Shown here in pieces: positions 7,698 to 23,358 of a stretch of DNA of 31,615 nucleotides. Made by a program: the position numbers and the translations under genes. The notes beneath the pieces were generated by a model. The model was not told the DNA's origin. It made no database searches and saw nothing but the letters and a program-made list of their open reading frames with translations. Every line of letters begins with the position of its first letter. Position 1 is the stretch's first letter. Source of the stretch: a virus (taxonomy: Duplodnaviria > Caudoviricetes); IMG/VR virus record IMGVR_UViG_3300027697_000053, positions 1 to 31,615 of that record; one strand, 5' to 3'.

Positions 7698-9151
7698 GAT
7701 ATAACCTCGAGACAATGCTCCCGCTCGGTGCCTTTGAGCACTGCGGCAATCGCCACATAAAACTTTATGGCGGCGGTGGTTCTTGGAATCCCGTAACCAT
7801 TGTTGAAAACGCTGTTAGTTCCGTAGGTGATGTGGTAAGCGATGTGGTTCAAGGCGCTGGCGATGTACTAGCAGACGTCGATGAATTTGTAGGCGACACA
7901 ATTCCTGGTGGTTGGACAACCGTTGCCTCTGTTGCCGTTCCTTATGCAGCTCCGTATGTAACAGGAGCGGCATTAACCGCTGGGCAAGCCGCCGCATTAG
8001 CCGCCGCAACAAGCGCAACCTCTGGGGCCGTACAAGGCAGAGACCCGGAAGATATTTTAAAGAATGCGGCTTTGGCTGCTGCCGGCTCTTATATTGGCAA
8101 GGGCGGGTTATCTGATAGTGGTGTCCCAAATTGGGACGCCGACATTACCGCCGGCGCTGAGGGTTACGCAAACGCCGCCGGTGCTGCTGGTGCAGGCGCT
8201 GGCTCTGGTTTAAGTGCTGACATGAACCTTGACGCTCCGTATGTGGACATGCCAGATGGTGAATACCTATTAAATGATGTAATAGATGAGGGTGGATTAG
8301 CACAGTACCCTGGCGATTCACAATACGAAGTACAAGATGTCCAAGAGCAGGCCAGAAATACTGACGTACCATCTGGTAGCTCAACGTCGTGGGATCGTGG
8401 CGACACATCGCTACCAAGCGCACAAGAAGCACTAAAGGCGGCCAATAGGGCGCGCCAGTTATACGGCATGCTAAGTGGTATTGGTGGGACAATGGTTGCA
8501 AGAAACGCGCCGGGGTTGAGCCAGTACACGACACCAACAACCACATCAGACCAGGGCGGCTTATCAAATTTTGGTATACCAAACCTAACCGCCGGGGTTG
8601 TTCGTGGCCAGCCCATTGACCTAAACATAGACCAATTTAATTCACCACTGTCACCGGTTAACGCCGCCGAGGGTGGTTACATACAGCACTACGCTGCGGG
8701 AAGTGATGTAGATTCATATACCGACACTAACTACCAAGACACCGTAACAGGATTAACAAAACTAAAACCAAATCTAATCCGGGGTAAGTCAGACTTTGGC
8801 TTGCAAAAATATTGGAACCCGCCCGCCGCATACGCCGACGGTGGATCTATTGAGGGGCATAACCCAGAGTTTTTTAGTGAGGGTGGGTTACAAAACCGCT
8901 ACGTAAAGGGCGCAGGTGACGGCACCAGCGATGACGTGCCGGCCATGTTAGCCAACGGTGAGTTTGTGATACCCGCCGATGTGGTATCTAAGCTAGGCAA
9001 CGGAAGTAACGACGCGGGCGCTAACATCCTCGATGAATTTTTACAGGTAATTAGAGAGCACGCACAGAACCACAGCCCAAAAGAATTACCGCCCGACTCA
9101 AAGGGTCCATTGGTGTATTTAACAGAAGCATCGCAAAGAGCAGAGGGATAA
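7694..9151 (+). CDS. Internal virion/ejection protein with Gly-Gly motifs and C-terminal GxGDGxSDxxPAMLxNGEFV domain
   Basis: Start moved to ATG 7694 (ATGA overlap). N-terminal ...LYGGGG leader, Ala/Gly-rich hydrophobic stretch, AAEGG/YADGG/FSEGG motifs. Confidence 0.7.
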   Translation: MRYNLETMLPLGAFEHCGNRHIKLYGGGGSWNPVTIVENAVSSVGDVVSDVVQGAGDVLADVDEFVGDTIPGGWTTVASVAVPYAAPYVTGAALTAGQAAALAAATSATSGAVQGRDPEDILKNAALAAAGSYIGKGGLSDSGVPNWDADITAGAEGYANAAGAAGAGAGSGLSADMNLDAPYVDMPDGEYLLNDVIDEGGLAQYPGDSQYEVQDVQEQARNTDVPSGSSTSWDRGDTSLPSAQEALKAANRARQLYGMLSGIGGTMVARNAPGLSQYTTPTTTSDQGGLSNFGIPNLTAGVVRGQPIDLNIDQFNSPLSPVNAAEGGYIQHYAAGSDVDSYTDTNYQDTVTGLTKLKPNLIRGKSDFGLQKYWNPPAAYADGGSIEGHNPEFFSEGGLQNRYVKGAGDGTSDDVPAMLANGEFVIPADVVSKLGNGSNDAGANILDEFLQVIREHAQNHSPKELPPDSKGPLVYLTEASQRAEG

Positions 9152-17804: not shown

Positions 17805-17816
17805 TACTAATGCAAA
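17805..17816 (-). promoter_or_regulatory. TTTGCATTAGTA motif, copy 4
   Basis: Exact 12-mer on the - strand, 35 nt upstream of the polA ATG. Confidence 0.8.
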
Positions 17817-19878: not shown

Positions 19879-20400
19879 TTAAACTGCGAAGTCGGCTGCT
19901 GCTGTTGTGCTGCCACCTAACTTCTCGCCGTCCTCTAACTTCTGGACGTTGTTCAAGCCACATGCGATGCCCTTAGATCCCTGAGCATTGTATGGGTAGA
20001 ACGTGATTGATGCGCGACCATAGCACCCGCTATAGAACTCACTTGTGTCAATGATCGGGTTAAGATCTTGATCTACAACGCCCGGCTTTTGTGCCGAGTT
20101 TGCATTGATAAAGTAGCTGTTAGCGTATGCTGGGTCGTCTTTCTCCGCGTCGCCATCACGCAGGCCACCCTTTAAGTTCTTGGGTACCGCGCCACCGAAG
20201 TATGCAGACGCCGCGGCCTTGGTCTCTTCAAATGCTTTTTGGAGACGTGCGATGGTGTCCTTGTCAGACTTGGGGATGATGATTGATACGGAGTACTTCG
20301 GTGTGCCACCCTCGATTGAGGAGGCGGGTTGGAATACGTTCGCATAAGAAAAACGAACTTTACCGGTTACAACTTTTACTTTAGTAGTGGCTTGTGCCAT
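19879..20400 (-). CDS. DUF2815-family single-stranded DNA-binding protein
   Basis: VRFSYANVF.P, KYSVSIIIPK.D, LRDGD, YSGCYGRAS, GIACGLNNVQK..DGE.LGG, terminal DF. Confidence 0.9.
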   Translation of the reverse strand: MAQATTKVKVVTGKVRFSYANVFQPASSIEGGTPKYSVSIIIPKSDKDTIARLQKAFEETKAAASAYFGGAVPKNLKGGLRDGDAEKDDPAYANSYFINANSAQKPGVVDQDLNPIIDTSEFYSGCYGRASITFYPYNAQGSKGIACGLNNVQKLEDGEKLGGSTTAAADFAV

Positions 20401-20467
20401 GTTGATTCCTTTATAACTGTAGAACTGGACTTCAATAGGGGCCAGTTCGTCTACCCTCTGCTAAATA

Positions 20468-22231: not shown

Positions 22232-22621
22232 TTAGGACTTTAGGGCGGAAATCAAATCTGCTATCTCTTTATTAAAGTCGATCTTTGCCTCGATCTTCGC
22301 CTCTATTTTAGTGTCCCGCGTCTCTCGGTAGTCCTGCTGGAACTGGCCACGTAAGGCAATCTCGGCCAGCCGGCTGTTGTATGCCTTGTTGTCAACGTTT
22401 GCCAGTAGCTCACGCTCCCAGTACGCCTGTGCGTGGACCAGGGATAGGTCCAGGGCCTCGGCAAACTCTGGGTACTTCTTCTTCCAAGTCTCCGCGGTGC
22501 CCTTTGAAATGCTTAGGTCGGACCAGATCATTTTTTGGGACGCGCCCAGCTTACCCAGCTCGATCATGCGATCGCACATAGCCGGATCGTATTTGGACGG
22601 GTTTGCTTTTTTAGTTGCCAT
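22232..22621 (-). CDS. Terminase small subunit-like HTH DNA-binding protein
   Basis: PSKYDP..C..MIE...G.S...I...L.IS..T...W...YPEF.EA pattern of TerS-like proteins. Confidence 0.6.
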   Translation of the reverse strand: MATKKANPSKYDPAMCDRMIELGKLGASQKMIWSDLSISKGTAETWKKKYPEFAEALDLSLVHAQAYWERELLANVDNKAYNSRLAEIALRGQFQQDYRETRDTKIEAKIEAKIDFNKEIADLISALKS

Positions 22622-22770
22622 TATTTTTTAGCTGTCTTTGCAGAATCTTTAAATGCCTTGGATGTGGGCGCGCCAGGATCACCAGGCTTGCGCATCTTCT
22701 CGCCGCTTCCAGCCTTGATACGTTCACGCTTTTTTTGGATGTTGGCATAGAGGCCAGGTTTAGCTGCCAT
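22621..22770 (-). CDS. Small basic phage protein, 49 aa (MAAKPGLYANIQKKRERIKAGSGEKMRKPGDPGAPT...)
   Basis: Hand-translated; TAATG coupling to the next gene; resembles a recurrent small basic protein of aquatic phages (from recall). Confidence 0.8.
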   Translation of the reverse strand: MAAKPGLYANIQKKRERIKAGSGEKMRKPGDPGAPTSKAFKDSAKTAKK

Positions 22771-22873
22771 AAAATATCCCATAAGTTATGCACCACAGCT
22801 CCAAACATAACTTATAGGTTATGAATATTGCCACTGGCACGGTTGTGAAATAGAAAATGTCTTTTGTTGTCAT
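22760..22873 (-). CDS. Possible 37-aa hydrophobic peptide (MTTKDIFYFTTVPVAIFITYKLCLELWCITYGIFYGS)
   Basis: ATG 5 nt after the CCA of the ncRNA; overlaps the next start; no clear RBS. Confidence 0.45.
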   Translation of the reverse strand: MTTKDIFYFTTVPVAIFITYKLCLELWCITYGIFYGS

Positions 22874-22878
22874 GTGTT

Positions 22879-22959
22879 TGGTGGAGTAGCACGGTACTGC
22901 CCCGTGGTCCGCTGGGTTGCATATTAGCCTTGGCCCCTCGTCGAAACTATACCTACCCC
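22879..22959 (-). ncRNA. Minimal tmRNA-like RNA (tRNA-like domain only, 81 nt)
   Basis: GGGGUAG GUAUAGUUUCGA CGAGGG GCCAAGGCUAAUAUGCAA CCCAGCG GAC CACGG GGCAGUA CCGUG CUACUCC ACCA. 7-bp acceptor stem with G3:U70, A73, encoded CCA, 5-bp T stem with 7-nt loop, stemless D-loop ending in UUCGAC. Confidence 0.8.
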
Positions 22960-22964
22960 ATTGT

Positions 22965-23010
22965 AAAAAAGTCGCGACTTTTTTGTAAACTGGTTCAAAA
23001 AAGTCGCAAC
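22965..23010. repeat. 20-bp perfect palindrome AAAAAAGTCGCGACTTTTTT (22965-22984) plus extra half copy (22997-23007); 15-bp hairpin + U6 on the - strand
   Basis: Read directly from the sequence. Confidence 0.85.
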
Positions 23011-23015
23011 CGATA

Positions 23016-23273
23016 CTAAAATACTGCCGTGATGCGGTTAAAGCGCTTAACGCCGTCAACCAATTGCGACTCGATCGTGGTGCTGATGAACTTGTTCATC
23101 TCGATCGCGTTGTCAATGATCTCGTGCATGCTGGGGAATTGTGGCGCCTTCTCGAGCAGTTTTTTACCTGCCTCGTCTGCCACTTCCCATGCCTTTAACT
23201 GGGCGTTGTACTGCTCGGTTAAAAACTCCTTGGAGGTCTTGAGTAAGTCATAGCGTAATTCAAATGGATTCAT
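23016..23273 (-). CDS. Conserved-looking phage hypothetical protein, 85 aa
   Basis: CAGGAG RBS; NPFELR.DLLK...P.FP...EII..A.....F pattern. Confidence 0.8.
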   Translation of the reverse strand: MNPFELRYDLLKTSKEFLTEQYNAQLKAWEVADEAGKKLLEKAPQFPSMHEIIDNAIEMNKFISTTIESQLVDGVKRFNRITAVF

Positions 23274-23346: not shown

Positions 23347-23358
23347 TACTAATGCAAA
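23347..23358 (-). promoter_or_regulatory. TTTGCATTAGTA motif, copy 7
   Basis: Exact 12-mer, 73 nt upstream of the ATG at 23273; extended identity (ATTTTGCATTAGTAGATATAG) with copy 2. Confidence 0.8.

Follow-up and report, generated by a model that had tools for sequence, protein, structure and literature searches.

The window analysed here, i.e., the whole stretch of 31,615 nt, corresponds to an entire IMG/VR record (IMGVR_UViG_3300027697_000053, G000), a linear viral contig of about 49% completeness whose gene content includes PolA, RNR, SSB, an exonuclease, the terminase small subunit, a helicase and a primase. The RNA runs that hold the window sequence are of freshwater origin, and tblastn of PolA returned 32-37% matches only, the best of which belong to uncultured freshwater phages and to phages of Ralstonia, Pseudomonas and Achromobacter. 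Upstream of the terminase small subunit gene (terS), a slot bordered by two small ORFs harbors an RNA gene on the minus strand. The features of this region are the following, from the upstream to the downstream side:

23347..23357, minus strand: copy of an intergenic motif, candidate promoter for a transcript presumed to include the element (motif search)
23016..23273, minus strand: 85-aa ORF, upstream border of the RNA-gene slot, conserved in relatives
22970..23011, minus strand: 16-bp hairpin with a trailing U run, terminator-like, 10 nt before G1 (sequence)
22879..22959, minus strand: TLD-only (tag-less) tmRNA gene, 81 nt (sequence; 55.5 bits with the family model R1, the training set of which includes the window sequence)
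22953..22959, minus strand: 5' strand of the acceptor stem, G1-G7, with G3 (sequence)
22940..22952, minus strand: stemless D-loop ending in UCGAC (sequence)
22910..22940, minus strand: truncated P2 arm (fold; P2a pairing in the family)
22907..22909, minus strand: GAC connector (A kept family-wide with the connector left free)
22890..22906, minus strand: T arm of 5 bp with the loop GGCAGUA (sequence; alignment A1)
22879..22889, minus strand: 3' strand of the acceptor stem, including U70, then the discriminator A73 and the encoded CCA (sequence)
22621..22782, minus strand: 53-aa ORF, downstream border of the slot, phrog_16028, function unknown
22232..22621, minus strand: terminase small subunit (terS), phrog_309, E 4.8e-15, anchor for the presence/absence test

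The 85-aa ORF has no PHROG or Pfam match. The terminator-like hairpin is kept with an altered sequence in one relative (L018) and a tRNA-Thr occurs in its place in another (L027). A perfect 20-bp palindrome, AAAAAAGTCGCGACTTTTTT, located at 22961-22980, overlaps this hairpin, and both together possibly represent two alternative hairpins or an operator. The 11-nt motif TTGCATTAGTA occurs in nine copies in the window, at 171, 753 and 7147 on the plus strand and at 17805, 20468, 22169, 23347, 25146 and 31497 on the minus strand, all of them intergenic and each oriented along the genes behind it; it is also found upstream of terS in many relatives and is regarded as a candidate phage promoter or operator. 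Three sigma-70-like sites were found versus 1.7 expected, and a sigma-70-like site abutting G1 (10/12) was discarded as a promoter, since transcription from it would begin 5-8 nt further on, within the acceptor stem itself.

The element consists of a 7-bp acceptor stem (GGGGUAG/CUACUCC) with a G3:U70 wobble, the discriminator A73 and an encoded CCA, together with a T stem and without D stem or anticodon arm, exactly as a sequence-only reading of 22959-22879 on the minus strand had described it. The MFE fold of the 81-mer has this shape, with a 12-nt unpaired D-loop. The D stem and the NGC anticodon arm of a tRNA-Ala are lacking (ARAGORN, fold). The same reading rightly saw that the pseudoknot and tag region of a tmRNA had been replaced, but its clean stem with an 18-nt insert does not hold: the middle comprises 30 nt between UCGAC and GAC and forms, at the place where tmRNA has its pseudoknots and tag frame, a broken P2 arm made, in this order, of 2 bp, a 2x2 A/G internal loop, three G-C pairs, an internal loop rich in A and an apical hairpin of 2 bp. 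With its 2x2 A/G loop, the P2a of the window copy is weaker than in most members of the family described below. According to PMC8363625, SmpB touches G19 and a pocket formed by A15, U17 and A334 in the structure from E. coli; G18 in the D-loop of the element is the counterpart of E. coli G19, and the A of its connector that of A334.

Depending on the tool, the element is either missed or recognized in part. ARAGORN reported no tmRNA or tRNA gene in the window, and the Rfam scan of the whole window gave a DUF2815 RNA motif as the sole match (20398-20457, minus strand, 75 bits, immediately preceding the SSB gene) and none to RF02544. A match to both tmRNA ends had been proposed as supporting evidence; a local Rfam scan of 251 nt yielded instead an alpha_tmRNA match to the 3' half only, at 23.5 bits for a cut-off of 50 bits. 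For the two-piece alpha models (RF01849, RF04321), this match and a second one of 16.4 bits were confined to the 3' half, and RF02544 again gave no match. The search of the whole record with RF00023 returned nothing, and neither an mRNA-like domain nor a tag frame was detected by ARAGORN and RF00023, in cis or as a nearby second piece, in this record of about 49% completeness. Blastn of the element against GenBank phages gave a 30-nt match (E 0.7) and nothing else. Standard tools (ARAGORN, Rfam at the scale of the window) thus miss this form. The folding energy of the 81-mer is ordinary (z = 0.02, 103 of 200 shuffles folding equally well), and a loose geometry scan, which yields 0.11 matches per shuffled window, also picked up 8257-8310 by chance. 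Neither property being distinctive, the proof of the element has to be comparative.

A strict pattern retrieved 27 near-identical copies in IMG/VR, the flanks of which diverge immediately beyond CCA and immediately ahead of G1; L027 has a tRNA-Thr ending 5 nt upstream of the mini gene's G1. Relatives were anchored on TerS (80 of 208 kept) and the mini gene was then sought with the model R1, which matched 25 of the 27 loci with a TerS 82-100% identical. The two negative loci start merely 99 and 293 nt before the TerS match, and all 25 loci reaching the site are positive. No copy of the gene was detected by R1 in the 53 loci with a TerS identity of 65-79%, 46 of which have at least 400 nt upstream; an 18.7-bit match in L723 turned out to be a cut tRNA-Ala. 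Among the 44 distant loci submitted to ARAGORN, nine possess a tRNA-Thr, -His or -Ala gene upstream of terS, and the same place is occupied by a tRNA-Thr followed by a tRNA-Ala in L716, and by a tRNA-Thr followed by the mini gene in L688. A distant relative whose 66-kb genome is complete lacks the mini gene throughout, and a copy is carried by a 97%-complete close relative (G006), one out of five records searched. Because distant relatives lack a copy and tRNA genes occur at the site, the mini gene is, on this comparison of genomes, an accessory gene in an RNA-gene slot shared with tRNA genes; missing from the complete 66-kb relative, it is dispensable for the clade. Within the 25 close copies and the window, only 5 of 81 sites vary, all of them unpaired, versus 156 of 375 in the terS DNA (Fisher p 3.6e-11). 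In L663 (900-2001), about 1 kb separates the mini gene from terS in place of the usual 0.3 kb or so, which corresponds to an insertion in the slot. A 99-aa ORF (22760-23059, minus strand) overlaps the element; its frame is interrupted by internal stops in most relatives, in six of them inside the element, so that the region is not conserved as protein-coding.

A loose pattern extended the search to 119 loci, which corresponds to an estimated total of 460 stretches across IMG/VR; 113 of the loci have perfect acceptor and T stems. As a control for circularity, the family searches were repeated with one feature after another freed. Leaving the 5' strand, U70, A73 and CCA free gave 120 loci (about 630 estimated stretches), comprising 109 with perfect stems and 87 unique sequences. 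Both G3:U70 and A73 occur in 87/87 of these, although the bases were free in the search, whereas the other acceptor-stem pairs vary freely; G1:C72 and G2:C71 also occur in 87/87, C71 and C72 being fixed by the search pattern. Conservation of G3:U70 and A73 with these bases free indicates that alanine identity is under selection. Homologs had been expected to keep both G3:U70 and the encoded CCA: the former is invariant, the latter optional (34/87). Freeing the D-loop gave 114 loci, of which 54 are perfect without an ARAGORN tmRNA call (44 unique), with GAC kept in 43/44; freeing the connector gave 120 loci, 117 of them perfect (93 unique), with the A334 equivalent in 93/93 and GGAC in 77.

Pairing of the stems follows the same trend. 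In 120 dereplicated members, positions 1-6 of P2a pair in 632 of 720 cells, versus 307 after shuffling. In an 86-row alignment, P2a and the T stem together are paired in 93.0% of cells versus 57.8% in shuffled alignments and 38-53% in slid controls, with 392 two-sided changes versus 121; since the rows had been selected beforehand on perfect pairing of the acceptor and T stems, P2a (87.9% paired) is what bears independently on this result. The T arm in alignment A1 is paired in 100% of cells, with two-sided changes at four pairs. The stem covariation anticipated for virome homologs is therefore present. Two length groups, 63-73 and 76-85 nt, prevail in the family, and middles of 43-72 nt occur in merely 28 stretches of the whole collection, which points to a size class rather than to a ladder of decay. 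An A-rich loop and a small hairpin follow P2a in 71 of the 78 members of 79-85 nt. By virtue of this covariation, the invariant G3:U70 and A73, the sharp boundaries and the lack of a conserved overlapping ORF, the element is to be considered an RNA under selection and, as the first reading had proposed, a real tmRNA tRNA-like domain without mRNA-like domain.

The T-loop GGCRGUA does correspond to the alphaproteobacterial consensus, as had been noted, but offers no guide to the host: a GGC-type loop occurs in only 8/120 dereplicated members, and L057 and L083, which share the gene neighbourhood of the window, have other T-loops, so that an alphaproteobacterial origin deduced from this loop was abandoned as uninformative. 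The leader positions -1 and -2 display no strong preference across the 120 members. An ARAGORN tmRNA call in L039 looks spurious, and this locus was kept among the minis. A small class of tag-less forms of 94-123 nt with branched middles was also encountered (L267-L294), one group of which contains a tandem GTGTCAC-type repeat. The genes around the family are less constant than the RNA itself: tRNA genes lie within 1.5 kb at 13 of the 52 loci scanned, and clustering of 479 neighbouring ORFs revealed lineage-specific neighbours and no conserved partner gene. Pfam found no SmpB, RF-1/ArfB or Pth among 117 neighbouring ORFs, picked from the 154 nearest ORFs plus two ORFs of the window, and no SmpB or RF-1-family gene occurs in five records, two of them at least 90% complete. 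The partners of the mini RNA must therefore be those of the host.

Contigs from RNA libraries (8 of the 24 listed runs), which by nature cannot show RNA ends, were compared with the site of the element. They span the whole gene in X1, X3, X5 and X20, nearly so in X13 and partly in X6 and X9, and do not cover it in X4. All covering contigs run past at least one end of the gene, with no pile-up of ends and no discrete 81-nt species among them; that of X13 breaks off 5 nt within the gene at its 5' side, an isolated and weak observation. These contigs fit a precursor transcript, and DNA carry-over may account for them as well.

The mini RNA would likely be cut from a longer phage transcript, by RNase P at G1 and by 3' trimming to CCA. 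AlaRS would charge it with alanine, and host SmpB and EF-Tu, borrowed by the phage, would deliver it to non-stop ribosomes instead of the host tmRNA. The stalled chain would then move to the alanine of the mini RNA without receiving an ssrA tag, and host tagging would fall; release of the ribosome could involve ArfA/ArfB, drop-off and Pth, or a second tmRNA. Published work on the TLD-only tmRNA of Mycobacterium phage DS6A is relevant here: a DS6A-like molecule, chargeable or not, is reported to strongly inhibit tmRNA in E. coli, "perhaps acting by titrating SmpB" (PMC4131195), an inhibition of endogenous tmRNA cited again in PMC11915505. Joining the comparative signal to this one experiment, we give about an even chance to the reading that an alanylated mini RNA enters non-stop ribosomes with host SmpB and EF-Tu and, on balance, competes with host tagging. 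As the host tmRNA could still tag the chain at the empty A site after translocation, entry by itself need not lower tagging.

The same entry could also serve the host machinery. A message-free helper, which together with host SmpB clears non-stop ribosomes, adding at least one alanine to the chain as has been proposed for tag-less mitochondrial tmRNA, and acting in addition to normal rescue rather than in competition with it, would expose no mRNA-like region to nucleases. Such a helper accounts for the invariant alanine identity and for a slot common to tRNA-Thr, -His and -Ala genes; moreover, tag-less organellar tmRNAs persist together with SmpB and Ala-Ala tags exist (PMC11915505), and alanine tails are described as ClpXP signals (PMC8012679). 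However, the DS6A form inhibited and did not help in E. coli, host SsrA is reported to be stable during T4 infection (PMC9697503), so that its replacement may be unneeded, and no release factor travels with the mini gene in the neighbouring ORFs and records searched. We regard this helper as possible yet rather unlikely. An extension of it, in which phage minis are a widespread means of adding alanine tails on intact 70S ribosomes without any message, acting by repeated entry with host SmpB and template-free addition of alanines, is put forward as a speculation that would probably fail. If true, it would provide a nuclease-proof rescue route and phage control over the tagging of stalled products, and the minis would be to free-living cells what the unexplained tmRNA is to mitochondria.

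A mini RNA which only titrates SmpB off the host tmRNA, and never acts on the ribosome, agrees with an E. coli inhibition reported regardless of chargeability (PMC4131195) and with the conservation of the SmpB-contact bases. A pure sponge needs neither G3:U70 nor A73, both of which are nevertheless exceptionless while the other stem pairs vary, even though charging could still be retained for protection by EF-Tu. Inhibition in E. coli being independent of charging and G3:U70 being without exception in the sample, the natural role would extend beyond that of a sponge, an account we consider distinctly unlikely. A decoy or inhibitor of defence proteins that cut or sense tRNA or tmRNA would suit an accessory gene of patchy distribution, and precedents can be found in the t(m)RNA fragments of a phage anti-CRISPR complex (PMC11662646) and in the SmpB-like domains predicted in CoCoNuT defence systems (PMC10542128). 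The element, however, has no anticodon loop to absorb anticodon nucleases, the joint conservation of AlaRS and SmpB determinants better fits the translation machinery, and no anti-defence neighbour was found among the 117 ORFs, which leaves the decoy improbable. The invariant alanine identity favours ribosome entry over both the pure sponge and the decoy. Finally, a non-working element, whether a remnant of attP/ssrA, the acceptor piece belonging to a two-piece tmRNA or a mere by-product of the overlapping ORF, may be suspected from the use of tmRNA genes as integration sites, the occurrence of 3' fragments in phages, the match of the 3' half to the permuted alpha model, the 99-aa frame and the integrase of one family carrier (G010), but is already largely refuted and very nearly excluded by the presence and pairing of both ends, the lack of any tmRNA call in the window, the swap of the downstream flank right after CCA in relatives, the absence of a tyrosine integrase from the 97%-complete G006, the breakage of the overlapping frame in most relatives (in six, inside the gene) and the strong covariation.

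Returning to ribosome entry in competition with host tagging, minis that dampen trans-translation would be RNA inhibitors, of natural origin, acting on a pathway in which targets for antibiotics are sought. In addition, the family renders the role of tag-less tmRNAs, including those of mitochondria and plastids, testable in cultured carriers that infect harmless hosts: the Streptomyces phages LuckySocke, Shaeky and BRock contain unannotated copies among tRNA genes, with 71.6-76 bits on R1. A match in Pseudomonas phage SM1 is not a mini according to its R1 alignment.

Bacterial genomes contain comparable elements. A pattern scan of GTDB gave 121 loci, about 40 of which are mini candidates; 72 failed the perfect-stem filter, many of them being 3' ends of ordinary or permuted tmRNAs, eight more are permuted acceptor pieces and one is a standard gene. 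A full-length tmRNA is also present in all five tested bacterial genomes with a mini. The eight permuted genes (L352, L357, L378, L392, L397-L399, L402) are alphaproteobacterial, their acceptor piece starts with GGGG...UCGAC and is able to form all seven pairs (7/7) with the 3' strand of the piece itself, resembling a stand-alone mini of 86-89 nt, which may reflect either an effect of selection by the pattern or a route of origin. Minis of 76-81 nt with AUCGUUA-like T loops, several of them adjoining VWA-domain genes, occur in Victivallales/Lentisphaeria MAGs (L301, L326-L329, L336, L346, L360, L369, L370, L389, L391, L413, L414) and look like a repeated bacterial form, possibly linked to TerY-P, rather than a prophage gene; genome G003 has five mini copies (45-58 bits) plus a full tmRNA. 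Saccharibacteria MAGs (L307, L339, L321) contain minis of 65-73 nt, with a full-length tmRNA in both genomes tested. An 80-nt element between MFS and acyltransferase genes of an Achromobacter MAG (L361:3001-3080) looks like the host ssrA minus its middle, as a result of a fresh deletion or of an assembly collapse.

Compared to known systems, the element shares its acceptor, D-loop, connector and T-arm signatures with the standard (RF00023) and alphaproteobacterial (RF01849) tmRNAs, but differs by the lack of pseudoknots, tag frame and stop codon, is not permuted and scores below the Rfam cut-off. The permuted order of a two-piece alpha tmRNA, with a coding piece downstream of CCA, is not found, the downstream flank not being conserved. 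The full-length tmRNAs of phages, e.g., those of the mycobacteriophage Bxz1 group, Bacillus phage G and Melnitz, are likewise phage RNAs used with host SmpB (PMC4131195, PMC9004378); in contrast to the element, they include a tag sequence and ARAGORN detects them. The tag-less tmRNAs of organelles, i.e., those of jakobid and oomycete mitochondria (RF02544) and of the Mallomonadaceae plastid, the genes of which measure about 65 bp, also consist of a TLD without tag frame and, according to PMC11915505, persist together with SmpB, two-residue Ala-Ala tags being known as well. They represent, however, the only tmRNA of the organelle and are mostly permuted, whereas the phage mini is an extra copy in a host presumably equipped with a full tmRNA. 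As regards SmpB binding, a TLD fragment of 59 nt plus a loop binds SmpB in a crystal (PMC3985003).

The closest relative is the DS6A tmRNA, listed as "TLD only" (tmID 11587, PMC4131195) and as Phage__Mycobacterium.9 in PMC11915505, which overturns the initial statement that no phage example had been described. Its gene (JN698994.1, 28478-28560), unannotated in its record, scores 54.5 bits (E 3.9e-13) with R1, built without DS6A, versus 55.5 for the window copy. Both are phage-borne, of one-piece order and of similar size (83 and 81 nt), and both possess G3:U70, a stemless D-loop ending in UCGAC, a short P2a, an A-rich loop and a small apical hairpin. DS6A differs by its GCAC connector, its UUCGAUU T-loop and the lack of a full encoded CCA, whereas the window copy exhibits GGAC, GGCAGUA, an encoded CCA and a P2a broken by the 2x2 A/G loop, and belongs to a freshwater phage with no integrase detected and with a slot shared with tRNA genes. 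By every testable feature of its sequence, the element is a DS6A-type TLD-only tmRNA and is not new in kind. The literature searched contained no paper on a phage-wide family, and the supplements of PMC10690425, as well as a 97,179-sequence tmRNA database, may hold members without naming them. Absent from that literature are the breadth of the family, the strict constancy of its alanine mark and the exchange with tRNA genes within a single slot. The published form, a one-phage curiosity, is joined here by a family of hundreds of viral contigs.
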